From contig CAYMSV010000002.1 of NCBI GenBank assembly GCA_964393205.1, positions 226,767 through 290,766 of the forward strand: 64,000 nucleotides of DNA, written 5' to 3'. This document shows, piece by piece, positions 10,690 to 34,191 of the stretch (the first letter of the stretch is position 1; every line of letters begins with the position of its first letter). The notes under the pieces are model-generated. The model saw only the letters and a list, made by a program, of their open reading frames with translations. It did not search any database and was not told where the DNA came from. The translations under genes and the position numbers were made by a program. This DNA is from an uncultured Pseudomonadales bacterium. Its GTDB lineage: Bacteria; Patescibacteriota; Microgenomatia; UBA1400; PJMF01.

Positions 10690-10694
10690 GCTTT

Positions 10695-11843: not shown

Positions 11844-11852
11844 GGTTATTTC

Positions 11853-15136: not shown

Positions 15137-15202
15137 ATTTTCCAGGCTAGTTAATTGTTTTTTTTACTAGTTTATACTACACTAAATACACAAACAATTT
15201 CT

Positions 15203-15925
15203 ATGTTCAATATAGCGAAAAAAACTATTAAAGTGAAGCGGCAGTTGCTCGAAAAATCAGAGAAAAAAACTCAAAAAGCTGTTACTCTAGTAGAACTATT
15301 AATAGTGGTGGCTATTCTTTTATTGTTAATGGTGTCTCTTTATCGAACCATAGGTCGTGAAATAGATAAATCCAGAGATGCTAATCGCAAAAAAGATTTA
15401 AAAGAGATAAAAATTGCATTTGAAAATTATTATAATGACAATAGCTGTTATCCTCCGGATGATATTTTAGAAAACTGTGGAGGAGAAGAGTTAAGGCCTT
15501 ATTTATCAGAGATCCCCTGCGACCCCTTAGGTGTTCCTTATTTATATTTACCAATATCTGATATTTTTGCTAATAATAATTGTGGTGGCTATAGAGTGCT
15601 AACTCGCATAGGTATTATTAATGATCCTGATATAGAAGCAGTTGGTTGTCCAGAAGGTTGTGGAGGAATACCAGCGGGAATTTCTTCACCAGAAAGCTAT
15701 AATTATGGTATAGCTGAAGGAATAGCGCTTGATCAAACCCCGCCACCAGCAGAAACAATAGATCCTGCTCTATGTACACCTGATGAACATTGTTATTGTT
15801 GTCCTGGTCCAGGAAATCAGTGCAATTCTTGGTGGCCATCCTCAGGAGGAGTTTGTAGTGTTGGTGGGCCATACAGAACACTGAATGATTGTTATAATAG
15901 TACAGAGTGTACTCCGTTTTTTTAA
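15203..15925 (+). CDS. Type IV pilin-like protein (class III signal peptide, Ala at -1), Cys-rich C-terminal domain
   Basis: The ORF is open from 15155, but the ATG at 15203 avoids the divergent promoter region. Leader ...KKTQKA|VTLVELLIVVAILLLL has Glu at +5. The block SRDANRKKDLKEIKIAFENYYNDNSCYP is shared with the next two genes. There are 15 Cys in the C-terminal domain. Confidence 0.6.
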   Translation: MFNIAKKTIKVKRQLLEKSEKKTQKAVTLVELLIVVAILLLLMVSLYRTIGREIDKSRDANRKKDLKEIKIAFENYYNDNSCYPPDDILENCGGEELRPYLSEIPCDPLGVPYLYLPISDIFANNNCGGYRVLTRIGIINDPDIEAVGCPEGCGGIPAGISSPESYNYGIAEGIALDQTPPPAETIDPALCTPDEHCYCCPGPGNQCNSWWPSSGGVCSVGGPYRTLNDCYNSTECTPFF

Positions 15926-15938
15926 TTCTAAAATAATT

Positions 15939-16487
15939 ATGTTGACAAAAAATTTAAATAAACAACAAGCATCTTCAGGATTTACGCTATTAGAATTATT
16001 GGTAGTCATGATCATTTTAGCCTTGTTAGCAGGTATAGGACTAATGTCTTTTGGCACTGTACAACAAAAATCTAGAGATAGTGCTCGCAAGCAAGATTTA
16101 GCCAGTATCTCCAAAGCACTTGAGCTTTATCATAATGATTACGGATCTTATCCACTCTCTAGTTCCATAGATGGGCAAATTGAGGGTTGTGGAATGGATG
16201 CATTAGAAGCATGTGTATGGGGAGAGATTTGGTCAAATAGTTCTGACGACACCCTATACATGAACATGTTACCTAAAGATCCTTTAACAAATTGGAAATA
16301 TTATTATCGTCAAGAGAATAATGGTTATTATCTTTTTGCCCGTTTAGAAAATGAAGAGGATCCATCAATGGCACTCAGTGGTGGTAATCCAGCGTTTTAT
16401 GCAAACACCAATTGTAATGGAGAAAGTGATAGTTGCAATTATGTAATTAAGAGCAGTAATTTAAGTGAGGAGCCTACAATATTTTAA
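15939..16487 (+). CDS. Type IV pilin / pseudopilin (canonical G|FTLLE prepilin motif)
   Basis: The ORF is open from 15885, but that would overlap the previous gene, so the ATG at 15939 is preferred. Leader MLTKNLNKQQASSG|FTLLELLVVMIILALLAGIG. The shared block SRDSARKQDLASISKALELYHNDYGSYP. Confidence 0.7.
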   Translation: MLTKNLNKQQASSGFTLLELLVVMIILALLAGIGLMSFGTVQQKSRDSARKQDLASISKALELYHNDYGSYPLSSSIDGQIEGCGMDALEACVWGEIWSNSSDDTLYMNMLPKDPLTNWKYYYRQENNGYYLFARLENEEDPSMALSGGNPAFYANTNCNGESDSCNYVIKSSNLSEEPTIF

Positions 16488-16510
16488 AATTAAGAGGCAA
16501 GGTTTAAATT

Positions 16511-16984
16511 ATGATAAAAATTAGCAAATTTGATCAAGAAAAAAAAGCTTTTACTCTTATAGAATTATTGATAGTTATCGCTGTTATAGGTGTTTTAATA
16601 GCAATAATTTTACCCAATTTAATTGGAATGCGTGAGCGAGCGAGAGACAGTAAGAGAAAAAATGATTTAGCACAACTAAAAACTGCTCTTAGGATGTATT
16701 TTAATGATTATAATAGTTACCCCCAGTCTTCTATTGATGAAAAAATTTGTTGCAGTGATCCCAGTACTTGTGATCAATGTATTGGCAGTACTTTTGAAGT
16801 AGCTGGTCAGACATATACCAAAGATTTATCTGATAACTACACCTATACGCCTCGAGATGCTGGACAAGGCTTTTTGTTAAGCACCACCTTAGAGAACGCT
16901 TCAGATAAAGACATAGCAGCTAGTGTTACTCGCTGTCAGGTTATTTCACCAATACCCAACTTCTTCTACGTGTGTGAAGATTAA
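16511..16984 (+). CDS. Type IV pilin-like protein (Ala at -1, FTLIE motif)
   Basis: Leader MIKISKFDQEKKA|FTLIELLIVIAVIGVLIAII. The shared block SKRKNDLAQLKTALRMYFNDYNSYP. Conserved Cys pairs (CCSDPSTCDQC). Confidence 0.7.
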   Translation: MIKISKFDQEKKAFTLIELLIVIAVIGVLIAIILPNLIGMRERARDSKRKNDLAQLKTALRMYFNDYNSYPQSSIDEKICCSDPSTCDQCIGSTFEVAGQTYTKDLSDNYTYTPRDAGQGFLLSTTLENASDKDIAASVTRCQVISPIPNFFYVCED

Positions 16985-17025: not shown

Positions 17026-18174
17026 TTAGAGATTTAGACCTTCAAGATTAATGCCTTGGAATTCCAAGCCACCACCTTCACCATCTTCTCCAATATTTAA
17101 GGCTGGTGTTTGACACCACTCTCCAGTTACCTGATTTTTAACAATGGCAATTTGATATTGATATTTATTGCCTGCAGTCGTTGAATCATCAGTATATTCG
17201 CGTAAAGACGAGGAGACATTGGTGTCTAAATCAGCAAATCCCGTGTCATTAACATTACGTTGAATAATGAATTTTTCTACGCCTGTTAGTTCTGTATCCC
17301 ACAAAATCAGTAATTCTGTATTCTCGGCATTTCTTTTTAACAAACAACTTGTCGGACGTTCTGGACCAAGATTAGCTGTAGCAAAACTTCCAGCGGTAGA
17401 CCAATTGCCTACGCCACCTTGATTATCAGAAAATCTAATTCTCCAATAATAAGTAGTGCCGTTAAAGGATAGGGCATTACCACCATAAGTTATGTTGGGA
17501 GATCTAGCACCAATAGCTGTATTGGTCATGGTTTGCAAGCCGCTATCCCACATGCTGGTGCCATCAAAATTTATTGATGTGTTGACTTGAACTTGATAAT
17601 AAGTGCCATAATCTCCTGTATTTGGATCTTGAAAAATTGCGCTAAAATAAGGACTAGTAGTTTCAATTTCGGTCGGGTTGGTTAATCCATTTGTCAATAA
17701 AGCTGTTGGAGTTGTGGGTGGAACGTTCATGCTAAATGAAGCAATGCTTGACCAAGCGCCTTCTGTATCTTCTCTGTCATAAAACCTAATCCGCCAATAA
17801 TAAGTACTACCATCTAAGGACAGGGTATTTCCAGCATAAGTTATATCTGGAGATCTAGCACCGATATTTGTATTGGTCATTGCGACTTTACCACTATCCC
17901 ACATACTGCCAGAAAGATCCGCTGTTTCAAAAACTTGTAATTGATAATGCATTCCATAATCATTTATATCTGGATCTTGAAAAATTGCGCTAAATTCTGG
18001 TGAAGTATCGGTAATGCCAGTAGGATTTGTCTGACCTTCACACAGAGGGGCGGTTGGAGCTGTTGGCGGCGTGCCATAAGAAGCATGAGCCGAGCTGGCC
18101 ATAGTTAAACAGGCTAAAGTTATTACAACTAAATAAAAAATTTTTAAGGTTTTTTTGTTTTTTTGTTTGATCAT
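17026..18174 (-). CDS. Secreted protein with two tandem ~115-aa FN3-like repeats
   Basis: Signal peptide (ITLACLTMASSAHA). Two paralogous modules, each ending ...GSTYYWRIRFYD / GTTYYWRIRFSD with shared SAIFQDP..DYG.YYQ.QV...SMWDSG...MTNT.IGARSP.ITY.GN.LS. Confidence 0.5.
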   Translation of the reverse strand: MIKQKNKKTLKIFYLVVITLACLTMASSAHASYGTPPTAPTAPLCEGQTNPTGITDTSPEFSAIFQDPDINDYGMHYQLQVFETADLSGSMWDSGKVAMTNTNIGARSPDITYAGNTLSLDGSTYYWRIRFYDREDTEGAWSSIASFSMNVPPTTPTALLTNGLTNPTEIETTSPYFSAIFQDPNTGDYGTYYQVQVNTSINFDGTSMWDSGLQTMTNTAIGARSPNITYGGNALSFNGTTYYWRIRFSDNQGGVGNWSTAGSFATANLGPERPTSCLLKRNAENTELLILWDTELTGVEKFIIQRNVNDTGFADLDTNVSSSLREYTDDSTTAGNKYQYQIAIVKNQVTGEWCQTPALNIGEDGEGGGLEFQGINLEGLNL

Positions 18175-18175
18175 T

Positions 18176-18844
18176 CTATCTTTTTATAAATTTTTGTTTT
18201 ATTTCTTTTACCTTATCAACTACTTTTTTATTTTTGCTGAGGATAATCCCACTTATTATTAGACCTACAAGAACGACAACTACAATTAGATATGTCATTA
18301 ATTGTTTAGTTCCAATATTGCTGAGCCAATTAGTTTGAGTAGCAAATAGTTTATTGTTTTCATCTTCTGCTTCAATTTCCTCAAGTCCATCTCCTAAAGA
18401 TATTGTGCTTAAAGTCACTTCTTCTTCACCTTCTTCTGATAGGCTAGAAAAATTCTCACTTTTGTCTAATTTGGCCTGAATATCATAGAAACCATCTTCT
18501 AGATTTAAAACGCTAAAGAGAACAAACCAGTTTCCATATTGATCAACGGTTGTTTCTAATTGTCTTTCTCCAAAAATGATAGTAATTTTAGCTCCTGGTT
18601 GGGCCTGACCGGCTATTTTAACCGCATCGCCTTCGGAAACACGCACTCTATCTGATTGGTTTTTATCTACAACCTCATTATTAATGGCAACATAATCTAG
18701 TACTGGTGTCGATTTTTGATTATTTTGACTAACGGACAGAGTGTTGGCCTCTAATTTATTTGGGTAGGAGAAAATAAGTCCAAGTGCAATAAGAGTGGCG
18801 ATGTTTATGAAGAGCTTTGTTTTGTTTGGATGGAATTTAGACAT
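18176..18844 (-). CDS. Hypothetical cell-surface protein, N-terminal signal plus C-terminal TM anchor with K-rich tail
   Basis: N-terminal hydrophobic segment. An acidic stretch (SEEGEEEV...EIEAEDENN). C-terminal TM LMTYLIVVVVLVGLIISGIIL, then KNKKVVDKVKEIKQKFIKR. Lies 1 nt upstream of the FN3-repeat gene on the minus strand. Confidence 0.45.
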   Translation of the reverse strand: MSKFHPNKTKLFINIATLIALGLIFSYPNKLEANTLSVSQNNQKSTPVLDYVAINNEVVDKNQSDRVRVSEGDAVKIAGQAQPGAKITIIFGERQLETTVDQYGNWFVLFSVLNLEDGFYDIQAKLDKSENFSSLSEEGEEEVTLSTISLGDGLEEIEAEDENNKLFATQTNWLSNIGTKQLMTYLIVVVVLVGLIISGIILSKNKKVVDKVKEIKQKFIKR

Positions 18845-18954: not shown

Positions 18955-21900
18955 CTAGTTGACAATCCACCAGTTAAATTGAACATCCTTATTTAGAGCA
19001 AAATCAAAACCAGCAATAAATTCTGCTTCATTTTCAATAGTAAATGTGCTGTCTAGTAATTTGTTTTTAATATAAATAACTTGATTGTTGGTAGATGTAA
19101 GAGGTGTGATGTAAATCATGCTGTTTTCAGTAAGACGAGAAGTTTTAACTTTCACCTCAGTTTGACCTGCAAGAATGACTGCTTGTCCAGCACTGTTATT
19201 GTTGATATTTGCAGAAGCACTGGCATCAGCAGAAGCACTGGCATTGGCAGGCATCTGATCAATTTTTAGACCACCACGCAAGGTCAGATCTCCGCTGGCA
19301 GACATTGTTGCTATTGGTTCTCCTTTTTCATCTATAAACTCAAAATTATTTTGTCTAATCACTTCTTCGCCCATTTCGTTAGCGACAGCTTGAGCAAGCT
19401 GTATGCGAATATTTTCATCAGGGTTTTCGGCTCTAATGAGATTGGTGAGTAGAGTATCTTTGACTTTTAGCTCTTCAGCAACTTCTAAAGTACCAGCCAC
19501 TTTAAGATCACCACCAATGGTAATTAGACCACTTTCGTCTAGAACTAATAAGTCAGCCATTAAAGATAAGCGGCCTCTACCAGCTGGCTGAATGGATAAA
19601 TCATAATTTTCATTATTTTGGAAAGCTATATAGCCATCTCCCATAGTTAAACCCTCACCGACCAATAGGGTCTGCTTAACTGCCAGAGCTTCTTCAATTA
19701 AAGCACTACCATTAACTTCAAAATAACCATCAATATAAGCATTGTGTGCTGTGATAGTATCACTTATGAAGTTGTTTTCATCATTGTTTAAGTCAGTGTC
19801 ATTATTAGTGTTGTTTAGATCAATGTTGTTATCTTGAGCCACTTGTTCTAGGTATTCTTCAGTAGTAGTGTCATTATTCATCAATGAGGCAAGTAGAGTA
19901 GAGTCTGCTAGTTGCTTGGCAACCGCCGTTTCTAGTCTTTCCTGTAGGCCGTTGATGATGTTGGCATCAACACTATTGGTATAGAGATTGTCGGTAGTTA
20001 TGGACTGGGCATGAAGTTCTCCAGAAACAGAGGCAGTATTCATTCGAGCACTATTAATTTCTGCTTCTTCGGCTGTTAATTGATTTAATTGGCTAGAGCC
20101 TTCAACTGCAAGATTGCCAGCTAGTTGTGCATTACCTTGATTATCGATACTGGCTACATTTTCACCTAAATTATTTTCAATCAATAATTCAGCTAAAATA
20201 GTGGGTTGTTTTTCTGCAACACTTAAGTTGTTATTTGATGTAATTAGCTCATCATTATTGAGGGCTAGTTGAACAACGTCTTTGATATATTGATCGAGAG
20301 TCTGGCCACCAATTTCTATTTGCTCTGTCACAATTTTTTGAGCGTTGAGAAGACTGGTGTTAATGGCAGTTGCAATTGAGTTATTTAATTGAGTAATTCT
20401 TTGATTTGTTTTTTCAACGAAATCAATATACTTGAGATTTAATTCTTGTATCGCTTTTGTTAACAAAGCTGTGAGGTGGACATAGTTAACACTAATTAAT
20501 TTTCCCTCTAGATAGGTGGCAAACATTGGATTAATTTGTTCTATTTCTTCTGCAATAAAACCCAAATCTTTTCTACCATCTTCTCTCCAGATATATTCAC
20601 GAGGGGTGAGCTGCATCAGTGTGTCCAGTCCATCTCCTAGATCTTTGATATCTTCTTTTAAGTTTTGGGTAGACGCACATGGTCTAATAAATTGATATCC
20701 AGTATAAGTAGTACTTGCGCTATAACACAAAGTAGCTCCTCCGCCAGTAGTGTAGTTGTAATACAAGGCATTGTCGGCCATCACATTTGTTGAAGAATGT
20801 ACGCCGGTTAGAGGGGCAGTTTTACCAATTCCCAGGTTGCCATCTTTATCTAGTCTCATTTTTTCAGTTGGTGAGCCTCCGCTAGTGGTAGTGGTCCAAA
20901 ATAATAAATTACCTTCATTTGTGTTGGTGGTTTGTTTTCTAGCTGTTATATAAGCTAGTTCACCACCAGTGGCAGAAGAATCAGTAAATCTGATTTGTCC
21001 AATATCACTAGTTGTTGAAGTAGTTCTTGCTCCGATTAGGTGCAGAATGGCATCTTGTGCGCTGGTTGCGCTAGTTCTAATATAGAGCTCTGGTGTAGCG
21101 CTGGATACAACGTCTAGGGTGCCTGAGGTGCTGGTGTCGCCAATAGCTACGCTACCATCTGAAAGGATATGTAATGCATCACTGCCGCCAACTGAAAATC
21201 CAAGAGAGTCACTAGCGGGATTATACATACCAGTGTCACTATCCGTGCTAAAACTATAAGTAGGGGCCCCAGCACTACCGCTTGCACCAAGCAATTGAGC
21301 AAAATTAATTAAGCTACCACTATTTAGACTTACTTGATCACTGGCAGCAGCAATAGTAATGTCTCCAGAAGTATTAGAAATTACAGAACTTGTACCACCA
21401 ACGATTAAACCACCCCCTCCACCTCCACTCATAGGAAATTCAACTGTTCCATCATCTTTTAAGGTCATAACGACAGCATCGGCAGTTTCAGTCCAGGAAG
21501 CAGTTGATTTTAATACAATATCCAATTGTGTTCCTGGTCCAGAGCCACTAGAGCTATAGGAAAACACATTAAAATCAGCTACAGCAGGGAATAGTCCTGA
21601 AGTTGCACCTTTTCTAACTAAACGAAGTAGTGTTTCTGTAGTAGTACTGTTAGCATTAGCACCTATCAATCTTGCCGCAGGTGTATTGCCAATTAATTGA
21701 CTTGCATGGGGAGTTCCAATCTGCAATAGTGCCTCTGGTGCAGTAGTACCAATTCCCAGATTGCCACCGATTACTGCCAATCTAGCGGTGCCAGGAGTGT
21801 GAGAACCGATAGCGGCACTACCTGCAGTAGTCAATGAAACTCCAGAAGAAGCTGGATCTAAAAAATAAGCATTGTTGCTATAGTCCATGACTTTTTCAAC

Positions 21901-24900
21901 AATAGCTGAACCGTCAACCACGAGTTTTTCACCAGGATTAGTGACACCAATGCCAACATTTCCATCTGCTCTTATTCTCATTTTTTCGGTTGGCGCTGCA
22001 TTATCGGTAGAGGTTAAAAAAGCTAGTGCTCCTTTGTAAGAAGTGCTGCCAATGTCTGTAATTAAACCTCTAATCTGTGCTACTTCTGTTATTCCTCCCG
22101 TAGTTCTGTTTAGGGCAAAACCGATTTGGGCAATATTGTCAACGTGAGCAGCCGTGGTATTAGTAATTCTTTGAGCAGTAGTAGCTGTGCCAAAAGCTCC
22201 AACCACATCCAATTTAGCTCCTGGAGTTATTGTCCCAATTCCGACACTGCTCCCACCAACAAACAAAGCTTCATCGGTATTGTTAGTAATTCTGAAGGCT
22301 CCGCTAGTAAAATTCCAAGTAGTGTTGAAGGCATCCATAGTTAAGGTTTGATCACTAGTAGTTGGACTAACAATACTGTCCCATCTAACTGCTACGTCAC
22401 CTTGACTTGTCCAAGTTGGAGCACCAGCTCCTTGTGAGGTGAGTAATTGACCAGTATCTCCTGCAACAGTAAATGCATAAGCATCTCCAGTACCATAAGC
22501 AACTGTTCCAGCAGTGGGAGTGGCTGTGGAGTTAGTACCACCTCTTGCAATAGCAAGTAATCCTGTCCAACCTAGTGTCCAAGTTCTATCAGTAGTCAAA
22601 TCTTGAGCAACTCCTGAATTAGTTACCGTTACATTAGTATCTTGAGTAATAGTTAAAGATCGATCAGCTCTAACTGCTTCAGTTGCGACAGTGGCTTGAG
22701 ATCCTAAAATAATGTTATCTCCGTTAATAGTAGTATTGGTTCCCGATCTACCAAGAGTTAATCCTGATTGAGTGGTACCACCAATAGCTAGAGTACCAGC
22801 AGCTCTGGTATCTAGATTGCCTCCACCTTGAACTAAGATATCACCAACCACATCCAATTTAGTTCCTGGGGTAGAGGTGCCGATACCAACACTACCACTT
22901 GCATCAATCACAAATGGAGTAGTGTCAGTAGCACTGTCATCAACTCTAAAGGAAGCGGCATTACCCAAGTTTTTAACATAAAGGGGAATGGCTGTTGATG
23001 AAGCCAGAGTAGAAGCAGTTAGTATAGAAGCATCTCCAGTAGCAGTTGAAGCACTACTTTCTCCAAAAGTAAAAGCACTCTTACCGGCAGTAGTTAGTGC
23101 CCAGTTCCAAACTTGAGCAAGATCTCCACTAGCGATAGTGTTAGCAGCTGTAGCAGCAGTAATACCGGATAGTGGTACATTAGAAGCAGCTCCTGGAGCA
23201 GCCCACACTGGCACACCTCCACTCACAGTTAATACATGACCAGTATCACCAATAGTTCTTTTAGCTAGAGTGTTAGCTGCACTAGCATAAAGCATGTCAC
23301 CAGTTGCATAACTTATTTGATTAGTTCCTCCATAAGCTTCAGTAATGGTACTAGCATTCCAAGTACCACTAGTTAAAGTACCAACTGAAGTTAGAGATGA
23401 ATTAATGACCCCTGATCCAAGAGTAGTAGCATTGAGTACTGAAGTATCATTGATGTAATATTCGTTACCTAAACTTAAATTAGCACTACCAGCGACGTCG
23501 AGCATATGGCCTGGATTGATGTCGCCAATTCCTACTTTTCCTCCACCAACATAGAATGCTTCATTACTATTGTTAGTAATTCTGAAGGCTCCGCTAGTAA
23601 AATTCCAAGTAGTGTTGAAGGCATCCATAGTTAAGGTTTGATCACTAGTAGTTGGACTAACAATACTGTCCCATCTAACTGCTACGTCACCTTGACTTGT
23701 CCAAGTTGGAGCACCAGCTCCTTGTGAGGTGAGTAATTGACCAGTATCTCCTGCAACAGTAAATGCATAAGCATCTCCAGTACCATAAGCAACTGTTCCA
23801 GCAGTGGGAGTGGCTGTGGAGTTAGTACCACCTCTTGCAATAGCAAGTAATCCTGTCCAACCTAGTGTCCAAGTTCTATCAGTAGTCAAATCTTGAGCAA
23901 CTCCTGAATTAGTTACCGTTACATTAGTATCTTGAGTAATAGTTAAAGATCGATCAGCTCTAACTGCTTCAGTTGCGACAGTGGCTTGAGATCCTAAAAT
24001 AATGTTATCTCCGTTAATAGTAGTATTGGTTCCCGATCTACCAAGAGTTAATCCTGATTGAGTGGTACCACCAATAGCTAGAGTACCAGCAGCTCTGGTA
24101 TCTAGATTGCCTCCACCTTGAACTAAGATATCACCAACCACATCCAATTTAGTTCCTGGGGTAGAGGTGCCGATACCAACACTACCACTTGCATCAATCA
24201 CAAATGGAGTAGTGTCAGTAGCACTGTCATCAACTCTAAAGGAAGCGGCATTACCCAAGTTTTTAACATAAAGGGGAATGGCTGTTGATGAAGCCAGAGT
24301 AGAAGCAGTTAGTATAGAAGCATCTCCAGTAGCAGTTGAAGCACTACTTTCTCCAAAAGTAAAAGCACTCTTACCGGCAGTAGTTAGTGCCCAGTTCCAA
24401 ACTTGAGCAAGATCTCCACTAGCGATAGTGTTAGCAGCTGTAGCAGCAGTAATACCGGATAGTGGTACATTAGAAGCAGCTCCTGGAGCAGCCCACACTG
24501 GCACACCTCCACTCACAGTTAATACATGACCAGTATCACCAATAGTTCTTTTAGCTAGAGTGTTAGCTGCACTAGCATAAAGCATGTCACCAGTTGCATA
24601 ACTTATTTGATTAGTTCCTCCATAAGCTTCAGTAATGGTACTAGCATTCCAAGTACCACTAGTTAAAGTACCAACTGAAGTTAGAGATGAATTAATGACC
24701 CCTGATCCAAGAGTAGTAGCATTGAGTACTGAAGTATCATTGATGTAATATTCGTTACCTAAACTTAAATTAGCACTACCAGCGACGTCGAGCATATGGC
24801 CTGGATCTGTATCACCAATACCGACTCGACCGGTACTAGCTTTTATAGTTAATCTGTCGGCATTATTGGTTCTGAGCCAGAAATCGTGATTGGTCATTGA

Positions 24901-26499
24901 TCCAGCAAAAGCGCCACCAGCCGCACCAGTGCCCATAATAAACTCAATATCATTAGTTACATCTCTACCCAAGAAGTAGGCTTTTCCATCGCCCTGAACC
25001 GCTACAGCAGCATTTTGTGATGAGTCAATGACAGCCGATGATTCAGGAGTGATGCCGGTTTGAGCAAATAAGGCTAACCAATTGGTGCCAGCTGCTGAAC
25101 CACTGGTGTGTAGGCTAGCAATTGGATCAGTAGTGCCAATTCCTACATTACCAACTCCATCTGGAGCTAAAACAATATCTCCATCACTGCCACTTTGGGT
25201 TTGAATCATGATCGAATCGGCCTCCAACATTAAGCTACTGCCAGTAGCAGTTTTAATTTCAGGATCATCAGTACCAAGCACCAATTCTCCTTGGTCATTT
25301 AGCATTAACAAAGTGCTATGAGTAGCAATTAAGCTAGGACGAATGCCCTGTACGGTTTCAGAGTTAATGGCGTAGGCTACAGTGCGAATTGGTTGGCGTG
25401 GTGTAAGGGTTTCAGTGCTTGGCGCTGTACCAACCGTAACTTCTAGCCAAACATTGCTATTCTCAGTAAATACACTGTCATCGATAGTTCCACCACAATC
25501 ATGATCGTCGCTACCAGCGCCACTACCAGCTCCAAGATTAGTGCTAAAAATACCGTCTTGATCTGGGGTAATAGCACAAGTATTAGATGACCAGAGCAGA
25601 TTGCCTGAAGTAACATCATCATAGAGCTCAAAAGTGACATCTGTTTCCGCAGCAATGGGAGTGCGGGCGGTATTGGTCAAGCGTCCCTGGAAAGAGAGAA
25701 TCCGATTTGGACTGGTAGGTAGGCTCGGATAAGCAAGTGACAAGACCGCTTGACCGAATTGTTGATAGGCTAGATAGCCTAAGCCGCCAATAAAAAATAA
25801 TAATGCAATAACATTAAGCGCAATAGCTAGTTTATTTGCTCGTTTACGACTTATCTTACTAGCTTGACTAACCTTGCCAAATAAGTTTCGTCTTTTCTTT
25901 GTTCCTTGTTCTTGAGTAAATTTCGCTAAAGTTTCGTCATCACTACTGAGGTTTTGAGTTTGTTGATTTTCGAATTGATCTGTTTGATTTTGAGGGCTAA
26001 TGGCTCTCCTCAAATCAATGTTTTTTGAATCTTTAGTATCAGAGTTATCTTTTTTAGGAGCAAGGGGAATTTCTGACTTGAGTAGGCCCTCTTTTTTTAA
26101 CCAATTTTTAAACTGGCTAACACTGACAATTTTACGCTTAATTGAACTATCTTTTAAACCCTTTTCTCTCTGGTACTTAGCAAAAGCTAAGAGTTTGGGT
26201 TTGCTTCCCAAACCATCTAAATTTTTTTCACCTAGAAAATCTAAAAATTGCTTGATGTCACTTTTGTAATTGCGAATTGTGGTTTTTGAGCGACCGCTCT
26301 TCTTGACTGCCAATAGGTAGTTATTTAGATTTTTTTCGATCTCTTTTGCTACGTTAAGACTATCGTTAGTGCTTTGTTCTTGTTTTTTAGTTTGGCCAAC
26401 TGCTTGATTTTGCAATAACTGCAAGAACTGTTGCTCACCGCTCAGTTTTTTTGCTTCTTTACTGTTTTGCTTGGTAATTTTGTTTATTTTGGCAGGCAT
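18955..26499 (-). CDS. Giant (2514 aa) membrane-anchored surface protein: N-terminal phage-integrase SAM-like (core-binding-like) domain, single TM, tail-fibre-like VGIGT repeats with a 430-aa exact duplication, internal S74-type intramolecular-chaperone-like motif, C-terminal coiled-coil/beta region
   Basis: Residues ~55-140 (YLLAVKKSGRSKTTIRNYKSDIKQFLDFL...SSIKRKIVSVSQFKNWLKKEGLL) resemble the XerD/phage-integrase N-terminal SAM-like domain. TM LAIALNVIALLFFIGGLGYLAY at ~aa 222-246. The extracellular part carries many (V/N)(G/S)IGTxxP motifs. A SxxNLKEDI...L(T/R)P..Y.W.....GFIAEE...I.P segment encoded at ~20560-20690 resembles the Peptidase_S74 autoprocessing module. One continuous ORF. Confidence 0.65.
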   Translation of the reverse strand: MPAKINKITKQNSKEAKKLSGEQQFLQLLQNQAVGQTKKQEQSTNDSLNVAKEIEKNLNNYLLAVKKSGRSKTTIRNYKSDIKQFLDFLGEKNLDGLGSKPKLLAFAKYQREKGLKDSSIKRKIVSVSQFKNWLKKEGLLKSEIPLAPKKDNSDTKDSKNIDLRRAISPQNQTDQFENQQTQNLSSDDETLAKFTQEQGTKKRRNLFGKVSQASKISRKRANKLAIALNVIALLFFIGGLGYLAYQQFGQAVLSLAYPSLPTSPNRILSFQGRLTNTARTPIAAETDVTFELYDDVTSGNLLWSSNTCAITPDQDGIFSTNLGAGSGAGSDDHDCGGTIDDSVFTENSNVWLEVTVGTAPSTETLTPRQPIRTVAYAINSETVQGIRPSLIATHSTLLMLNDQGELVLGTDDPEIKTATGSSLMLEADSIMIQTQSGSDGDIVLAPDGVGNVGIGTTDPIASLHTSGSAAGTNWLALFAQTGITPESSAVIDSSQNAAVAVQGDGKAYFLGRDVTNDIEFIMGTGAAGGAFAGSMTNHDFWLRTNNADRLTIKASTGRVGIGDTDPGHMLDVAGSANLSLGNEYYINDTSVLNATTLGSGVINSSLTSVGTLTSGTWNASTITEAYGGTNQISYATGDMLYASAANTLAKRTIGDTGHVLTVSGGVPVWAAPGAASNVPLSGITAATAANTIASGDLAQVWNWALTTAGKSAFTFGESSASTATGDASILTASTLASSTAIPLYVKNLGNAASFRVDDSATDTTPFVIDASGSVGIGTSTPGTKLDVVGDILVQGGGNLDTRAAGTLAIGGTTQSGLTLGRSGTNTTINGDNIILGSQATVATEAVRADRSLTITQDTNVTVTNSGVAQDLTTDRTWTLGWTGLLAIARGGTNSTATPTAGTVAYGTGDAYAFTVAGDTGQLLTSQGAGAPTWTSQGDVAVRWDSIVSPTTSDQTLTMDAFNTTWNFTSGAFRITNNSNEAFYVGGGKVGIGDINPGHMLDVAGSANLSLGNEYYINDTSVLNATTLGSGVINSSLTSVGTLTSGTWNASTITEAYGGTNQISYATGDMLYASAANTLAKRTIGDTGHVLTVSGGVPVWAAPGAASNVPLSGITAATAANTIASGDLAQVWNWALTTAGKSAFTFGESSASTATGDASILTASTLASSTAIPLYVKNLGNAASFRVDDSATDTTPFVIDASGSVGIGTSTPGTKLDVVGDILVQGGGNLDTRAAGTLAIGGTTQSGLTLGRSGTNTTINGDNIILGSQATVATEAVRADRSLTITQDTNVTVTNSGVAQDLTTDRTWTLGWTGLLAIARGGTNSTATPTAGTVAYGTGDAYAFTVAGDTGQLLTSQGAGAPTWTSQGDVAVRWDSIVSPTTSDQTLTMDAFNTTWNFTSGAFRITNNTDEALFVGGSSVGIGTITPGAKLDVVGAFGTATTAQRITNTTAAHVDNIAQIGFALNRTTGGITEVAQIRGLITDIGSTSYKGALAFLTSTDNAAPTEKMRIRADGNVGIGVTNPGEKLVVDGSAIVEKVMDYSNNAYFLDPASSGVSLTTAGSAAIGSHTPGTARLAVIGGNLGIGTTAPEALLQIGTPHASQLIGNTPAARLIGANANSTTTETLLRLVRKGATSGLFPAVADFNVFSYSSSGSGPGTQLDIVLKSTASWTETADAVVMTLKDDGTVEFPMSGGGGGGLIVGGTSSVISNTSGDITIAAASDQVSLNSGSLINFAQLLGASGSAGAPTYSFSTDSDTGMYNPASDSLGFSVGGSDALHILSDGSVAIGDTSTSGTLDVVSSATPELYIRTSATSAQDAILHLIGARTTSTTSDIGQIRFTDSSATGGELAYITARKQTTNTNEGNLLFWTTTTSGGSPTEKMRLDKDGNLGIGKTAPLTGVHSSTNVMADNALYYNYTTGGGATLCYSASTTYTGYQFIRPCASTQNLKEDIKDLGDGLDTLMQLTPREYIWREDGRKDLGFIAEEIEQINPMFATYLEGKLISVNYVHLTALLTKAIQELNLKYIDFVEKTNQRITQLNNSIATAINTSLLNAQKIVTEQIEIGGQTLDQYIKDVVQLALNNDELITSNNNLSVAEKQPTILAELLIENNLGENVASIDNQGNAQLAGNLAVEGSSQLNQLTAEEAEINSARMNTASVSGELHAQSITTDNLYTNSVDANIINGLQERLETAVAKQLADSTLLASLMNNDTTTEEYLEQVAQDNNIDLNNTNNDTDLNNDENNFISDTITAHNAYIDGYFEVNGSALIEEALAVKQTLLVGEGLTMGDGYIAFQNNENYDLSIQPAGRGRLSLMADLLVLDESGLITIGGDLKVAGTLEVAEELKVKDTLLTNLIRAENPDENIRIQLAQAVANEMGEEVIRQNNFEFIDEKGEPIATMSASGDLTLRGGLKIDQMPANASASADASASANINNNSAGQAVILAGQTEVKVKTSRLTENSMIYITPLTSTNNQVIYIKNKLLDSTFTIENEAEFIAGFDFALNKDVQFNWWIVN
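22278..24806. repeat. Perfect tandem direct duplication, two copies of ~1239 bp identical sequence, period 1290 bp (copy 1 ~22278-23516, copy 2 ~23568-24806), inside the giant CDS
   Basis: Aligned by eye at several sampled positions along the unit, with no mismatches seen where compared. For example tgttagtaattctgaaggctccgctagtaaaattccaagt occurs at 22281 and 23571, and agcgacgtcgagcatatggcctggat at 23491 and 24781. The ~51-bp junctions differ. Each copy encodes 430 aa (VGIGD(T/I)(D/N)PGHMLDVAGSANLSLGNEYY ... SGAFRITNN). Confidence 0.9.
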
Positions 26500-28268: not shown

Positions 28269-30926
28269 ATGGTAAAAATTGAATACAATCATCAGGAAGT
28301 GGAGCGACGCTGCTTAGAACGCTGGAGTAAACTAGCTCTTTTTCAAGACACTCAATTAGACTTAAATCCAGAAGAAATTGATAAAAAGAGTTATTTGCTT
28401 TTTGCTTTTGCTTATCCCAGTGGATCTGGTTTACATGTTGGTCATGTAGAATCAAAAACTGCTCTTGATATTTTGGCTCGTTACCAGAGGATGAACGGCC
28501 AAGCGGTCTATTTTCCGGTTGGTTGGGACGCCTTTGGTTTACCTGCTGAAAACTATGCTATTAGTACCGGCATCCATCCTCGCGAAACAACTAAGTCGGC
28601 CATTGATACATTTAGGGAGCAAATTAAACGTTTAGCAATTTCTTACGATTTCACTAATGAATTAGCCACTAATCATCCAGAATATTATCGCTGGACACAG
28701 TGGCTGTTTTTACAACTATATAAAGAAGGCTTAGCTTATCAAGAACAAGGCAAGGTTAATTGGTGTACTAGCTGTCAGACAGTATTGGCTAATGAACAAG
28801 TGGTTGAGGGTTTATGTGAACGCTGTGAGAGTGAGGTAATACAGAAAGATTTAAAACAGTGGTTTTTTAAAATTAAAAAATATCAAGACGAGTTAATCAG
28901 TGGCTTAGAGGGTCTTGATTGGCCTCAGGCTACTAAGCAACAACAGTTAAATTGGATTGGTCGACATGAAGGGGTTAATATTTCTTATCCAGTTTTTGCT
29001 TTTGGAGAGAAAAATGAGAACGATGCAGTCGAGAGTGAAGCTGTTGCCGAAATAACTTGTTTCACTAGTCGGCCAGATACTAATTTTGGAGCAACTTTTG
29101 TGGTGCTGGCGCCCGAGCATGAATTTGCCAAACAAGTGGCTGCTGAGAAACCAGAGGTAGCTGAGTATTTAGCAAAAGCGGAGAAAAAAACAGAGCTTGA
29201 GCGCCAACAGGAAGGTAAACAAAAAAGTGGAGCTTTTACTGGTTACTATGCCTTTAATCGACTAACTGGTCGCCAGATGCCAATCTGGGTGGCCGATTTT
29301 GTTTTGGCTAATTATGGGACAGGAGCGGTAGTGGGAGTTCCCGGTCACGATAAGCGTGATTTTGAATTTGTGGAATTTGTTAATCGTCAGCATCCAGATC
29401 AGAAATTGGAAGTGATACGGGTGGTAGCTGGGCCTGATGGTAATCAAGAAAAGATTGATCAATTAGACCAGGTTTATGATGGAGAAGGAGAAATTATTAA
29501 TTCCGATTTTCTTAATGCTTTATCCGTTGCAGAAGCTATTGAGAAAATTGCAGATTATTTAGAGGAAAAGGGCTATGGTCAACGAGTAGTAAATTATAAG
29601 TTGCGTGATTGGTTAATTTCTCGACAACGTTATTGGGGAACACCGATTCCCATTGTTTATGATCCAGAGGGGAAAGCTCATCCGGTCAGAGAAGAACATT
29701 TGCCATGGACTTTGCCAGACGATGTAGATTTTAAACCAACTGGTGAATCACCCCTCAAATCTTCAAAAGAATTCAAAGAGCGAGTAAAACGTTTGTATGG
29801 TCAGGGATGGACTCCCGAGTATGACACCATGGATACTTTTGTTGACTCGAGTTGGTATTTTTTGCGCTATTGCGACAGTCGCAATCAAGAAGTTTTTGCT
29901 CGACCAGAACGCCTCAAGAAGTGGTTGCCAGTCGATCTTTATTTAATTGGCCCAGAACACATAGTTTTACATCTCTTATATTCTCGCTTTTTCACTAAGT
30001 TTCTAAGAGACCAGGGTTATTTGGATGTTGATGAACCCTTTGCCAAAATGCGTCATCAGGGGATGATTTTGGGTCCAGATGGCAAAAAAATGAGCAAGAG
30101 CAAAGGTAATGTTATTAATCCAGATGAAATAATTGAGAAACATGGAGCTGACACCCTACGTGTTTATGAAATGTTTATGGGGCCACTAGAGGCTGATAAG
30201 CCTTGGGATGATCGAGCGGTGGCCGGAGTAGCACGCTTTTTGCGTAAATTTTATCGACTTAGTGTGGAGGAAATTGAGGCGATAGCTCAACTCAGGAGTG
30301 AGAGCTCTTTAGACGAGAGATCGGCCTTGTTGCAAAAATTACACCAGACTATTAAAAAGCTGAATGATGATTTACCCAAGCTTAAATTTAACACGGCTAT
30401 TGCTATGTTAATGGAATTGACCAACCTATGGGAAAAAGCTAGTTTAGCTAGGAAAAAATTGGCAATTGAAGAACAAGGTTTGTTGTTTACTGCTCAGGAA
30501 CTATTGAAGTTATTGGCTGTTTTGGCCCCTCTAGCACCTTTTTTAACCGAGGAATTATATAGTCAGACTAAATATGCTTGGCAGAATATTGCTGATCAGA
30601 CCCTTGGTGAAGTAAAATGCGAGACAAATGAGGCGCGAGCGCGTCGTCAAACATTAGAAAGCCTGGAGTTTGCCGAGTCGGTTCATTTAACTAAATGGCC
30701 GAGTTTTGATCCGGCGCTCGCGCAAAGTCAACAGATAACTATAGCAGTTCAAGTTAATGGCAAAGTTCGAGCTGAGTTAACTCTGGATCATGATTTAATT
30801 AATGATCAAGCTGAAGTTTTATCCAGAGCTAAGGCTTTGCCGGCTTTAAATAAATGGTTGGCTGATCAAGAGATTATCAAGGAAATTTATATCCCCGGCA
30901 AAATTATTAGTTTTGTTATTTCTTAG
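28269..30926 (+). CDS. leuS: Leucyl-tRNA synthetase
   Basis: Class I HIGH region (YPSGSGLHVGHVESKTALD). CP1 editing domain. KMSKSKGN. C-terminal anticodon-binding region. 885 aa. Confidence 0.95.
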   Translation: MVKIEYNHQEVERRCLERWSKLALFQDTQLDLNPEEIDKKSYLLFAFAYPSGSGLHVGHVESKTALDILARYQRMNGQAVYFPVGWDAFGLPAENYAISTGIHPRETTKSAIDTFREQIKRLAISYDFTNELATNHPEYYRWTQWLFLQLYKEGLAYQEQGKVNWCTSCQTVLANEQVVEGLCERCESEVIQKDLKQWFFKIKKYQDELISGLEGLDWPQATKQQQLNWIGRHEGVNISYPVFAFGEKNENDAVESEAVAEITCFTSRPDTNFGATFVVLAPEHEFAKQVAAEKPEVAEYLAKAEKKTELERQQEGKQKSGAFTGYYAFNRLTGRQMPIWVADFVLANYGTGAVVGVPGHDKRDFEFVEFVNRQHPDQKLEVIRVVAGPDGNQEKIDQLDQVYDGEGEIINSDFLNALSVAEAIEKIADYLEEKGYGQRVVNYKLRDWLISRQRYWGTPIPIVYDPEGKAHPVREEHLPWTLPDDVDFKPTGESPLKSSKEFKERVKRLYGQGWTPEYDTMDTFVDSSWYFLRYCDSRNQEVFARPERLKKWLPVDLYLIGPEHIVLHLLYSRFFTKFLRDQGYLDVDEPFAKMRHQGMILGPDGKKMSKSKGNVINPDEIIEKHGADTLRVYEMFMGPLEADKPWDDRAVAGVARFLRKFYRLSVEEIEAIAQLRSESSLDERSALLQKLHQTIKKLNDDLPKLKFNTAIAMLMELTNLWEKASLARKKLAIEEQGLLFTAQELLKLLAVLAPLAPFLTEELYSQTKYAWQNIADQTLGEVKCETNEARARRQTLESLEFAESVHLTKWPSFDPALAQSQQITIAVQVNGKVRAELTLDHDLINDQAEVLSRAKALPALNKWLADQEIIKEIYIPGKIISFVIS

Positions 30927-33229: not shown

Positions 33230-34191
33230 AAAGAGTAGCATCATTCTTAATTTTAGGCTTTTTTATTTGGCAATTTATGACAAAATTCCCTGATAAATCA
33301 GTCAATTTAATAATGTGTGATGTTGGTCAAGGAGATGCTATTTTAATTCAGCAAGGCTTTTTTCAAGTTTTAATTGACACTGGTCCCGATGAAGCAGTTT
33401 TGACTTGTCTTAATCGTTATTTGCCATTTATAGATAAAAAGATTGATGTATTAGTCTTAACTCATTATGACAGCGATCATATCGGTGGTTTTACTAGTTT
33501 GTCGACAAATTACCAATTTGGCACAATTTTTGCTCCCCTAAGCGAAAATAAAGATAGTGAGCTTTTTCTCGAGTTAAATCGGGTTTTTTTTGACTTAATT
33601 GAGCAAGGAACGAGAGTTAAACAGCCGATTTTGGGCCAGCAAATGGCTTATCAGGATTTTAGCCTGGATAATCAGGCCAATCAATTATTGTTTACCTTCT
33701 TAACTCCAGCTGACCTCGAGTTAGAGTTTTTGCAAAGTCTTAATTTTTTCCAGGGGGAGTCCAGGCTACCCGAAACTATATTATCGGCTCTTAATCAAGA
33801 AAATTTTAGAAATTTTAAGCCTCTAGAAAGCACAAATAACCGATCTATCGCTCTTTTATTTGAATATGGCCAGTTGGATATCTTCCTATCTGGTGACCTT
33901 GAGGAAGAAGGGGAGCTTAGCATTATTAGCTCGGCTTTGATAGATCAAGTAGACATCTTAAAAGTAGCGCATCATGGGTCAAAAACCTCAAGTGCACCGG
34001 CTTTTTTGTCTCAAGTGTTACCCGAATTGTCTCTAATTTCTGTAGGTAAAAACAACAAGTTTGAACACCCTTCACCAGAGGTTTTAGACAATTTAGAAGC
34101 TTTTTCTTCTCAAATTGTCCGAACCGATCAAAATGGGGACATCAAAATTGTATTGTTAACAGATGTTTACTATTTTTTAACAACAAAATAA
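33226..34191 (+). CDS. comEC: ComEC C-terminal metallo-beta-lactamase-fold domain encoded as separate ORF
   Basis: MCDVGQGDAILIQ...VLVLTHYDSDHIGG...KVAHHGSKTS, the MBL-fold motifs of the ComEC C-terminal domain. 4-bp overlap with the upstream ORF. Confidence 0.75.
   Translation: MKRVASFLILGFFIWQFMTKFPDKSVNLIMCDVGQGDAILIQQGFFQVLIDTGPDEAVLTCLNRYLPFIDKKIDVLVLTHYDSDHIGGFTSLSTNYQFGTIFAPLSENKDSELFLELNRVFFDLIEQGTRVKQPILGQQMAYQDFSLDNQANQLLFTFLTPADLELEFLQSLNFFQGESRLPETILSALNQENFRNFKPLESTNNRSIALLFEYGQLDIFLSGDLEEEGELSIISSALIDQVDILKVAHHGSKTSSAPAFLSQVLPELSLISVGKNNKFEHPSPEVLDNLEAFSSQIVRTDQNGDIKIVLLTDVYYFLTTK

Follow-up and report, generated by a model that had tools for sequence, protein, structure and literature searches.

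A giant fibre gene in the 64-kb window analysed here (the whole stretch of DNA, from an ultra-small Patescibacteria/CPR-type bacterium in anaerobic-digester metagenomes) carries two in-frame copies of a 1290-bp unit in the region encoding its shaft, and we think it likely that this array was recently homogenised and that a one-copy allele arose from it by deletion. The relevant precedents are the MAT ("mosaic adhesive trimer") fibres of Bdellovibrio bacteriovorus, S74 subgroup, as described by Caulton et al. 2024 (PMC10769870). According to that paper, which also supplies the capping-loop description and the fibre dimensions used below, a GIG-type motif caps the beta-helix domains in MAT fibre crystal structures (PMC10769870).

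In a base-by-base comparison at an offset of 1290, positions 22278-23516 and 23568-24806 matched over 1239 bp in one unbroken run with 0 mismatches. The initial annotation had aligned the copies by eye and named many mismatches between them as the result that would speak against it; the comparison gave 0/1239, and the coordinates, the period of 1290, the identical length of 1239 bp and the junction length of 51 bp all proved exact. Identity at this offset falls to a background of ~25-35% beyond ~50-80 bp on either side of the repeat. A chance origin is excluded by the exact match, the sole long exact repeat in the 64-kb window. With a period of 430 codons, the repeat keeps the frame of the minus-strand ORF 18955-26499, which bears out the claim that the reading frame is preserved and a 430-aa unit duplicated. 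Direct repeats that are DNA-identical at 1239/1239 positions inside a coding region are a mark of repeat-number-variable adhesins. The features of the array and its gene are as follows.

18955-26499, minus strand: giant gene, 2514 aa, predicted from the ORF list, its translation, Pfam, PHROGs and NCBIfam to encode a membrane-anchored, MAT-like, S74-type fibre protein.
24807-24857, minus strand: linker U, a GIG/capping-loop motif region adjoining the first copy on its upstream side (gene sense); 24/51 identical to J.
23568-24806, minus strand: copy R2, the upstream copy in gene sense, aa 566-977, modules A and B minus the linker; exact match to 22278-23516.
24134-24200, minus strand: internal A-to-B linker motif of R2, with its R1 twin at 22844-22910; marks a 645-bp (215-aa) sub-period.
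23517-23567, minus strand: junction J, aa 978-995, SNEAFYVGGGKVGIGDIN; the inter-copy linker, with its own GIG motif; unique in the window.
22278-23516, minus strand: copy R1, the downstream copy in gene sense, aa 996-1407; exact match to 23568-24806.
22227-22277, minus strand: linker D, a GIG/capping-loop motif region adjoining the second copy on its downstream side; 34/51 identical to J.

The protein is built from modules whose boundaries carry the conserved motif GNVGIGTxxPxxxLxV, with GIG sites at aa 560, 775, 990, 1205 and 1420. The repeat unit thus corresponds to two whole 215-aa modules, A and B, and the internal linker motif was recognised as a repeat family (D2) with four copies at 645-bp spacing. 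Modules A and B are just 29.5% identical over 88 aa, and the modules flanking the array share only a ~16-aa motif with the unit; these comparisons speak against the older array of the same unit that the initial annotation had envisaged. Its description of the flanks as related but diverged fits the conserved linker motif, over ~50-80 bp, and does not extend to the neighbouring modules, which are unrelated.

The age of the array is best read from its three linkers. J matches D at 34/51 positions and U at 24/51, and the residues that the linkers still share are frequently encoded by different codons (5/6 between U and J, 5/10 between J and D). U, J and D have therefore diverged anciently and independently, with saturated synonymous sites, whereas the copies lying between them show 0-1 differences per 1239 bp, and from this contrast we infer that the copies were recently homogenised. 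What had been taken for a simple new tandem duplication is accordingly better described as an old, independently diverged linker between copies whose identity reflects homogenisation. The two module slots would be old, and their contents would have been made alike by gene conversion between the copies or by unequal crossing-over. Gene conversion between linkers of such divergence requires the interiors to have stayed similar, and the pattern fits an old duplication kept alike by continuous concerted evolution as well as it fits a single recent conversion. A donor paralogue was also sought in the window and rejected: the second giant gene (37106-44233) encodes an unrelated Kelch/fn3 protein with no BLASTP match, and J has no second site in the 64-kb window with up to 3 mismatches allowed. 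J is likewise absent among the viral contigs.

Near-identical contigs, found via the neighbouring 222-aa and 254-aa genes, revealed a 2084-aa one-copy allele beside the 2514-aa two-copy allele. Five other assemblies of the same strain, at no more than ~1 SNP per 10 kb, hold a single clean copy, and contigs of the two alleles otherwise differ by 0-2 SNPs per 10-20 kb. Contigs L001 (18.7 kb) and L045 (16.3 kb) match the window with 23517-24806 taken out, save for 1 SNP and 2 SNPs, respectively; the further one-copy contigs are L055 and L059 (JGI) and L069 (MEGAHIT). J with the repeat on both sides was independently recovered in L050/L064 (JGI 3300033170, a 231-kb contig), L061 (JGI 3300033172) and L066 (MEGAHIT, ERZ27252305), giving a tally of five one-copy assemblies versus four that contain J. 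Copy number per sample, including possible alleles of at least three copies, was read entirely from contig structure. The JGI, ENA and Logan data count as independent assemblies, though not necessarily as independent samples, because some of the reads behind them may be shared. An exact look-up of the 2514-aa product returned no record; the protein is identical to database protein P0001. The proposed comparison with related genomes uncovered copy-number variation, and the suggestion of recent or ongoing length variation gains support from the coexistence of both alleles in near-identical strains of one sample series. Differences between close strains by whole units are a second mark of repeat-number-variable adhesins.

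Such data also have to be weighed against an assembly artefact, in which there is one true copy, or a mis-expanded repeat, and the assembler made the second copy and J. These are short-read metagenome assemblies, in which repeats longer than the reads are error-prone, and several assemblies of the same strain yield one copy. However, the unique 51-bp J, with a motif of its own and without long k-mers common to U or D, must join the repeat on both sides in real molecules. The copy-J-copy structure recurs in three further contigs from two assembler types, and comparable exact intragenic repeats are present in related genomes, long contigs included. The positions at which contigs break off are equally telling: MEGAHIT and Logan contigs of other samples stop exactly k-1 bases inside the repeat, as at a real branch, and nine contigs end exactly k-1 bases from the repeat edge or an internal SNP. 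Ends fall at 22418 (repeat edge +140; two MEGAHIT k141 contigs), 22307 (repeat edge +30; Logan, k=31), 24577 (SNP -141; three MEGAHIT contigs) and 24591 (SNP -127; JGI), positions at which de Bruijn graphs branch when both paths exist. The contigs of sample ERZ27252302, with a break at the SNP and none at the end of the repeat, are not fully reconciled with the other contig ends. Since J was recovered by metaSPAdes-type and MEGAHIT assemblies alike and the breaks sit at k-1 offsets, the artefact that the initial annotation had raised is largely excluded, and we now consider it very improbable. The k-1 end-points offer a clean example of how a repeat can be validated without reads.

The internal SNP also varies between contigs.

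24718, minus strand: synonymous site (Ala GCT/GCC), repeat base 89, twin position 23428; T (sense) in both copies here.

Elsewhere among two-copy contigs this site is C in the upstream copy and T in the downstream one. The repeat was called perfect, which is right for the window (0 mismatches) but not for the population, because the copies differ by this one synonymous change at 24718/23428 in two other two-copy assemblies. Repeat base 89 is C in 4 one-copy assemblies and T in 1, and the overall pattern, with C,T and T,T two-copy and mostly-C one-copy contigs, is what crossovers lying mostly downstream of base 89 would give. Short-read assemblers pass a collapsed repeat node twice, and differences deep inside the copies may therefore have been smoothed out; chimeric assembler paths in mixed samples likewise mean that the haplotypes, apparently four (C,T; T,T; C; T), may come down to as few as two real ones. 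The one-copy/two-copy difference is a real, if ordinary, repeat-driven length change in a surface protein.

The direction of this change runs, most simply, from two copies to one by deletion. We infer as much because J is not rebuildable from U and D, and because the one-copy allele equals the two-copy allele minus one period. Homologous recombination between the 1.24-kb direct repeats would remove exactly 1290 bp and yield the 2084-aa allele, and the fibre shaft would change by two modules, or 430 residues per chain. Scaling from the MAT fibre dimensions in PMC10769870 suggests a change in shaft length of roughly 15-30 nm. A one-copy allele would probably be unable to regenerate the array, because J is lost and is anciently diverged from the outer linkers. 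The opposite course, with one copy ancestral and the second added recently by tandem duplication (through unequal crossing-over or slippage at the conserved motif), seems unlikely to us. Arrays of this sort commonly arise by tandem duplication at short conserved motifs, one-copy contigs are the commoner in the tally above, and a related species (L046) has just one region homologous to the unit. Against this, a one-step duplication predicts a 1290-bp match and a junction joining a D prefix to a U suffix, whereas the exact match of 1239 bp falls short of the period and J is no such hybrid, which rejects a one-step event. Beside 1239 unchanged bp, J differs from D at 17/51 positions and from U at 27/51, many of the differences being synonymous, and an ancestral single copy would need an extra event such as the import of J from another allele.

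Loss of one unit from a two-copy array is thus the account we favour, and the two copies themselves could in principle be the minimum path that assemblers give through a longer true array of at least three units, U-(R-J)n-R-D, in some or all cells. Whatever the value of n (1, 2, 3 or more), reads below 1.24 kb produce one and the same graph; three-copy and one-copy products arise together when a two-copy array undergoes unequal exchange; and the relative L047 carries a near-perfect array of 3-4 units of 990 bp. Close database matches comprise only 2514-aa and 2084-aa proteins, with none of the 2944 aa expected for three copies, which is weak evidence, those records being subject to the same assembler limitation. 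On balance we judge a longer array quite unlikely.

Outside the array the gene has four further predicted features.

26086-26310, minus strand: Phage_int_SAM_1-like domain (tyrosine-recombinase core-binding), aa 64-138; Pfam PF02899, E=5.5e-9, 36.6 bits versus a cut-off of 22.3.
25762-25830, minus strand: transmembrane helix, the only one predicted, aa 224-246; Kyte-Doolittle hydropathy peaks at 2.19 (aa 224-226).
25348-25719, minus strand: region weakly similar to MAT_N, aa 261-384; NCBIfam NF053851 Bdello_MAT_N, E=1.3e-5, 25 bits versus a cut-off of 60.
20527-20673, minus strand: Peptidase_S74 intramolecular-chaperone domain, aa 1945-1991; Pfam PF13884, E=7e-9, 36.3 bits versus a cut-off of 22.

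About 220 residues, including the Phage_int_SAM_1 domain, precede the helix and are predicted to be cytoplasmic: the basic stretch KKRRNLFGKVSQASKISRKRANK lies just upstream of the helix, and by the positive-inside rule the N-terminus would be in and the fibre out. Bdello_MAT_N matches, likewise sub-threshold at 21-25 bits, occur in 3/5 relatives, just after the recombinase-like N-domain in P0004 and P0007 and further downstream, at aa 418-452, in P0032. Near the other end, the S74 domain has a putative catalytic Ser1943 and Lys1948 (STQNLK), a dyad whose Ser and Lys are invariant in a 10-sequence alignment (A2); the Asp of the SDxxxK motif, as given in PMC10769870, is Thr here. The S74 profile matches the tail-fibre chaperone structures 6f45 (1.4e-16) and 8jov (6e-15) and MyRF 7dc3 (1.8e-7), PHROG tail-fibre families match aa 1720-1926, and ~570 aa lie downstream of the predicted cleavage serine. 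Within the PDB, a profile of eight GIG linkers finds only Bdellovibrio MAT structures (8ond, 1.6e-14; 8oml, 1.2e-8; 8ol4, 1.5e-6; 8ojn; 8on4). The Peptidase_S74 domain, the PHROG matches and the MAT-fibre motifs together support the description of the region as tail-fibre-like. PDB searches returned nothing with the full protein sequence and nothing credible for the module interior with the unit alignment. An AlphaFold2 monomer of the unit (aa 555-994) is poor (mean pLDDT 56.7), and both the fold of the module interior and the estimated length should accordingly be read as predictions.

The recombinase-like N-terminus raises the question of programmed diversification, by a diversity-generating retroelement or by cassette switching with a site-specific recombinase. 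The protein begins with what resembles a tyrosine-recombinase core-binding domain, its relatives are named "site-specific integrase" in databases, and the differences are concentrated in 51 bp. Nonetheless, only the N-terminal SAM-like part matches, with no catalytic domain bearing an active-site tyrosine after it, and the XerC/D models match over just ~7-90 of their ~290 positions, at 32-36 bits versus cut-offs >329. The window encodes no transposase or complete recombinase, its ORFs of at least 150 aa include no reverse transcriptase, and neither a retroelement nor a mobile-element context was found in it. There are no inverted repeats, and J is a full paralogous linker rather than a mutagenised copy. 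The neighbours are core genes, including those for RadA, Rho, Obg, LeuRS, ThrRS, Mur ligases and ribosomal proteins, and the neighbourhood (LeuRS, ComEA/EC, pilins, Obg, Rho) is conserved across species and is not a prophage. We therefore regard programmed diversification as exceedingly improbable and retain ordinary recombination between the repeats.

Exact internal repeats of the same kind recur in related giant genes, and the phenomenon is of a known kind. Two relatives have DNA-exact repeats that are, as here, shorter than their period (L048, 1352 bp at offset 2274; L049, 1085 bp at offset 2145). Among 28 large internal repeats with at least 90% identity, 16 start within 12 aa of the motif, where 15% would be expected. 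A syntenic orthologue of 5102 aa differs in its central modules, and scans of metagenome and genome contigs with the unit protein gave, among the matches listed, only distant partial relatives (59-73% over 60-200 aa). A further idea, less likely than not, is that the GIG capping-loop motif, besides marking a structural boundary, serves as a preferred joint at which whole fibre modules are copied, swapped, expanded and deleted in a large family of membrane-anchored, MAT-like giant genes of Patescibacteria. If this were true, genome-reduced epibionts would possess a fast, recombination-based means of re-tuning fibre length and specificity, and the co-occurrence of 1- and 2-copy alleles in one digester population would show it caught in real time.

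Patescibacteria/CPR bacteria probably live on the surface of host cells, and few molecules that mediate this attachment are known. We found no description of CPR S74/MAT-like fibres in the literature, and these giant MAT-like genes are currently mis-named "integrases"; judged by their sequences, the widespread giant CPR proteins so annotated bear the hallmarks of membrane-anchored trimeric fibres of a phage-like, MAT type. One such shaft changes by whole modules within a single near-clonal population from a bioreactor sample set, and cassette-like copying recurs in related genomes. Recombination between in-frame repeats of a surface protein is well known. The length change may tune attachment to a host cell. 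The locus offers a specific candidate, open to testing, for a host-contact structure that evolves rapidly, and the existing read sets of the Wageningen anaerobic-digester series, IMG 3300033169-3300033178 with SRR10872584 and its sibling runs, could be used to follow the allele frequencies.

Among known systems, the MAT fibres offer the closest parallel: both are cell-surface, phage-tail-fibre-like fibres of a bacterium living on other cells, with shaft modules capped by a repeated motif of the V-G-x-G-x-x-x-P-x-x-x-L type, a C-terminal S74 chaperone/protease with a Ser-Lys dyad (here read from sequence) and a mosaic module content between relatives. Just behind the membrane anchor, a stretch resembles the MAT N-terminal domain weakly, at 25 bits and below the NCBI cut-off of 60. 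Unlike MAT proteins, the giant protein is anchored by a cytoplasmic recombinase-like domain and one transmembrane helix in place of a signal-peptide start, is 2-5 times longer (2084-5102 aa), continues for ~570 aa after the predicted cleavage serine, and belongs to a Patescibacteria-type host rather than a predator of Gram-negatives. A term search in passages of PMC10769870 found no case of shaft modules varying in copy number.

Phage tail fibres and tailspikes (K1F endosialidase, T5 pb1, the S16/T4-type long tail fibre) resemble the protein in its S74 domain above the Pfam threshold, its matches to 6f45 and 8jov and its PHROG matches, but the giant gene stands in a core chromosomal neighbourhood and encodes a membrane-anchored and far larger product. 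T-even fibre genes, too, are reported to swap segments by recombination at short conserved motifs (Tetart et al. 1998). For the array itself, a parallel is offered by surface adhesins such as streptococcal alpha C protein, staphylococcal SasG/Aap and Bap, in which identical in-frame DNA repeats vary in number between strains. The present unit departs from theirs in being very large (430 aa, two different modules) and in having been seen once or twice rather than in long arrays, although three or more copies would be invisible in short-read contigs. It shares with them long, DNA-identical, in-frame direct repeats, close strains that differ by whole units, and recombination between the repeats as the obvious mechanism.

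The 1.29-kb repeat lies within a giant gene for a fibre-type protein. Comparing the window with itself base by base at an offset of 1290, we found that 22278-23516 matches 23568-24806 in a single unbroken run of 1239 bp with 0 mismatches, exactly the coordinates and numbers reported in the initial annotation. Identity at this offset drops to background beyond ~50-80 bp on either side of the repeat. Within the 64 kb, the pair at 22278-24806 is the only long repeat that is exact, and no inverted repeats were found. Tandem Repeats Finder does not list the 1290-bp repeat because its maximum period is 500. The period corresponds to 430 codons, and the gene and its parts are laid out as follows.

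18955-26499, minus strand: giant gene, an ORF of 2514 aa
26086-26310 (aa 64-138): Phage_int_SAM_1 domain, Pfam, above the curated cut-off
aa 224-246: strongest hydrophobic segment, with a very basic stretch just before it
24807-24857: U, linker upstream of the repeat copies in gene sense (right flank), identical to J at 24/51 positions
aa 566-977 and aa 996-1407: the two repeat copies (R) in the protein
23517-23567 (aa 978-995): J, 51-bp linker between the copies
22227-22277: D, linker downstream of the copies in gene sense (left flank), identical to J at 34/51 positions
aa 1720-1926: PHROG matches to tail-fibre families
aa 1945-1991: Peptidase_S74 domain, Pfam, above the curated cut-off

The initial annotation had proposed recent or ongoing changes in the length of a surface fibre, with an assembly artefact as the alternative. 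The former, in a phage-like fibre, is supported by the presence of one- and two-copy alleles in near-identical contigs. Among database proteins, P0001 is identical to the window's giant protein, and P0002 and P0121 (2084 aa) are exactly 430 residues shorter. The contigs encoding these two shorter proteins, L001 (18.7 kb) and L045 (16.3 kb), match the window with 23517-24806 taken out, save for one and two SNPs, respectively. About 20 further contigs of the same strain were collected via the exact products of the two neighbouring genes; their sources are JGI assemblies, ENA-deposited MEGAHIT (k141) assemblies and a single Logan assembly. The R-J-R structure is present in L050/L064 (JGI 3300033170, a 231-kb contig), L061 (JGI 3300033172) and L066 (ERZ27252305), and a clean U-repeat-D path in L001, L045 and L069 (ENA) and in L055 and L059 (JGI). 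Other contigs stop at telling positions: two at 22418, the repeat edge +140 (k-1 for k=141); the Logan contig at 22307, the edge +30 (k-1 for k=31); three at 24577 and a JGI contig at 24591, respectively 141 and 127 bases past an internal SNP at base 89 of the repeat; and others at 23427 and 23429, adjoining that SNP. A de Bruijn graph that holds both paths branches at just these places. The very assemblers that ran unbroken through a single copy in some samples thus hit a genuine branch in others. Together with R-J-R in further contigs, these stops largely exclude the artefact. Contig structure thus provides strong evidence, from assemblies that may share read sets, that the two-copy form is real and that copy number differs among samples. 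L051 and L063 (both ERZ27252302) break at the internal SNP yet are unbroken across the repeat/D boundary, a pattern to which no single simple mixture of the other haplotypes seen could be fitted.

The internal SNP falls at 24718 in the upstream copy and at 23428 in the downstream one, where it changes an Ala codon synonymously. The window reads T in both copies, L050 and L061 read C in the upstream and T in the downstream copy, and L066 reads T in the upstream copy; of the one-copy assemblies, four carry C and one carries T. A crossover in a C,T array would leave T if it fell within the first 88 bases and C anywhere in the last 1150, and recombination in a T,T array would yield T only. The allele distribution is thus consistent with recurrent recombination between copies, with the number of apparent haplotypes possibly inflated by chimeric paths in mixed samples. 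L066 also differs from the window by 7 SNPs in 82 bp (25567-25648, where the giant gene encodes its MAT_N-like part) and 4 more in 19 bp (30731-30749, near the leuS end), and is otherwise identical; these look like brief stretches brought in by recombination. Other contigs have comparable SNP clusters at their ends, which may be artefacts of mixed strains.

As for the origin of the repeat, a one-step tandem duplication would leave copies that match exactly over the full period, joined by a D-prefix/U-suffix hybrid; it is ruled out, as the match is 51 bp short and J is no such hybrid. Of 18 linker codons, 6 encode the same residue in U and J, with different codons at 5 of these; J and D agree in residue at 10, with different codons again at 5. 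The linkers therefore diverged long ago. Since the 1239-bp interior shows 0-1 differences between copies, the two slots must be old and their contents recently made identical. Either gene conversion or repeated rounds of unequal exchange could have homogenised them. The one-copy allele is the two-copy allele minus exactly one period, without J, and is therefore most simply a derivative that would arise by homologous recombination between the 1.24-kb direct repeats. The reverse direction, from one copy to two, would need an additional source for J. In L046, a contig from a related species, a single region matches part of the unit (73% identity over 143 aa), and the central modules are otherwise different.

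From its sequence features we infer that the giant protein has a cytoplasmic N-terminus, one membrane helix and ~2270 extracellular residues. XerC/D recombinase models match it over their first ~90 positions only, and the database name of its relatives, 'site-specific integrase', is therefore a misnomer. More than 100 giant Patescibacteria proteins under this name (1.4-5.1 k aa; P0003-P0120 among the relatives) have the same architecture: a SAM-like tyrosine-recombinase core-binding domain, lacking its catalytic partner, is followed by a membrane helix and an enormous extracellular fibre. Residues 261-384 resemble the N-terminal domain of the Bdellovibrio 'mosaic adhesive trimer' (MAT) at a sub-threshold 25 bits (NCBIfam cut-off, 60), and weak matches likewise occur in 3/5 relatives. 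A profile of the C-terminal region matches the tail-fibre chaperone domains 6f45 (1.4e-16) and 8jov (6e-15) and also MyRF (7dc3), and a Ser1943/Lys1948 dyad is invariant across ten family members. The predicted S74 cleavage serine is followed by ~570 residues (aa 1943-2514; 18955-20670), compared with the ~150-aa chaperone of phage fibres; at 52% identity in a 5102-aa orthologue this tail is conserved, and it probably has a role beyond folding.

A GNVGIGTxxPxxxLDVxG-type motif recurs at aa 453, 560, 775, 990, 1205, 1420, 1516, 1582 and 1890. Measured from motif to motif, the repeat unit comprises module A (aa 560-774) and module B (aa 775-989), both 215 aa long, an arrangement that accounts for four 67-nt motif copies at 645-bp spacing. 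The two are weakly alike (29.5% over 88 aa), and the modules flanking the repeat have only the ~16-residue motif in common. When a profile of the eight linker segments of the giant protein alone was searched against all PDB sequences, it matched only Bdellovibrio MAT fibre structures: 8ond/Bd2133 (1.6e-14), 8oml, 8ol4, 8ojn and 8on4. In Bd2133 and the 8ojn chain, it is the recurring motif loops that align; the three entries of the 8ojn chain are deposited only as 'Cell wall surface anchor family protein'. Caulton et al. (PMC10769870) call loops of this kind 'capping loops' in Bd3182, where they sit on the edges of its trimeric beta-helix domains, and Bd2133 has equivalents. For the interior of A and B the PDB sequence search found no solved relative, and an AlphaFold2 monomer model of the repeat unit was poor (pLDDT 56.7). 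The copy-number polymorphism amounts to gain or loss of two whole shaft modules, 430 residues per chain, with the anchor and S74 end untouched. Scaling from published MAT dimensions in the same paper (135 aa, 60 A; 370 aa, ~145 A; full fibre, ~550 A) suggests a change in fibre length of ~15-30 nm per unit.

High-identity internal repeats are present in many of 124 relatives, with three examples listed here in contig coordinates.

9908-13533: P0020 on L048, 1352 bp exact at offset 2274
9329-12558: P0011 on L049, 1085 bp exact at offset 2145
9100-14100: P0019 on L047, a 990-bp array of 3-4 near-perfect copies

As in the window, the exact stretch is shorter than the period in L048 and L049, and two separate repeats in P0019 start directly after 'GIGxxx', like the window repeat. 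Of the 28 internal repeats (in 17 proteins) that reach 100 aa and 90% identity, 16 start within 12 aa of the motif, against 15% for random positions (binomial p ~3e-7, the events being not all independent). Such a bias could come from selection that keeps modules intact or from recombination at the conserved DNA. The L046 orthologue P0123 (10001-25309; 5102 aa), syntenic with window 18955-26499, is twice as long as the window product and shares with it only the N-terminal 580 aa (72%) and C-terminal 660 aa (52%); its entire central shaft is a different set of ~30 motif-bounded modules. Flanking genes in L046 are ~75-80% identical in nucleotide sequence to those of the window.

The window is core chromosome (GC ~37%), encoding RadA, Rho, an M23/LysM peptidase, Obg, LeuRS, ComEA, an M16 peptidase and NDK as well as Mur ligases, MreB, ThrRS, L10, L1, NusG, three pilin-like genes and a split ComEC. 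Synteny around the giant gene is kept in related species (L046, L048, L049), and the named homologues come from Pacebacteria, Woesebacteria and other Patescibacteria. The IMG metagenomes carrying the strain are from an anaerobic digester in Wageningen, as listed in PMC10159854. Directly downstream of the giant gene and on the same strand, two genes (17026-18844, minus) that may be co-transcribed with it encode 222 aa without a family and 382 aa with two Ig_Rha78A_N domains, which form a ~350-bp internal repeat of 71-77% identity (17399-18030); in L048 such a domain lies inside a second giant protein at the equivalent position. The three pilin-like genes, in a row at 15155-16984 (plus), adjoin this fibre operon, as they do in L046; they have an N-terminal methylation motif and one has a T2SSG match. 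ComEC is split into two ORFs overlapping by 4 bases, 31823-33229 and 33226-34191 (plus), with a Competence domain and a metallo-beta-lactamase domain; the split recurs in L046 and L061 and is therefore not a sequencing error. A second giant gene, unrelated to the first (37106-44233, plus; 2375 aa), encodes a protein with a hydrophobic segment at its N-terminus, many Kelch/beta-propeller repeats and fibronectin type III domains.

That the repeat is real and precise is well supported, and the phenomenon is of a known kind. Our literature search found no description of 'integrase'-named CPR giants as MAT-type fibres, of copy-number variation within one strain, or of motif-bounded cassette copying. 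What is modestly new is the link between these CPR giants and MAT-type fibres, the population-level picture of copy number within a single strain, and the recurrence of motif-bounded cassette copying across the family.
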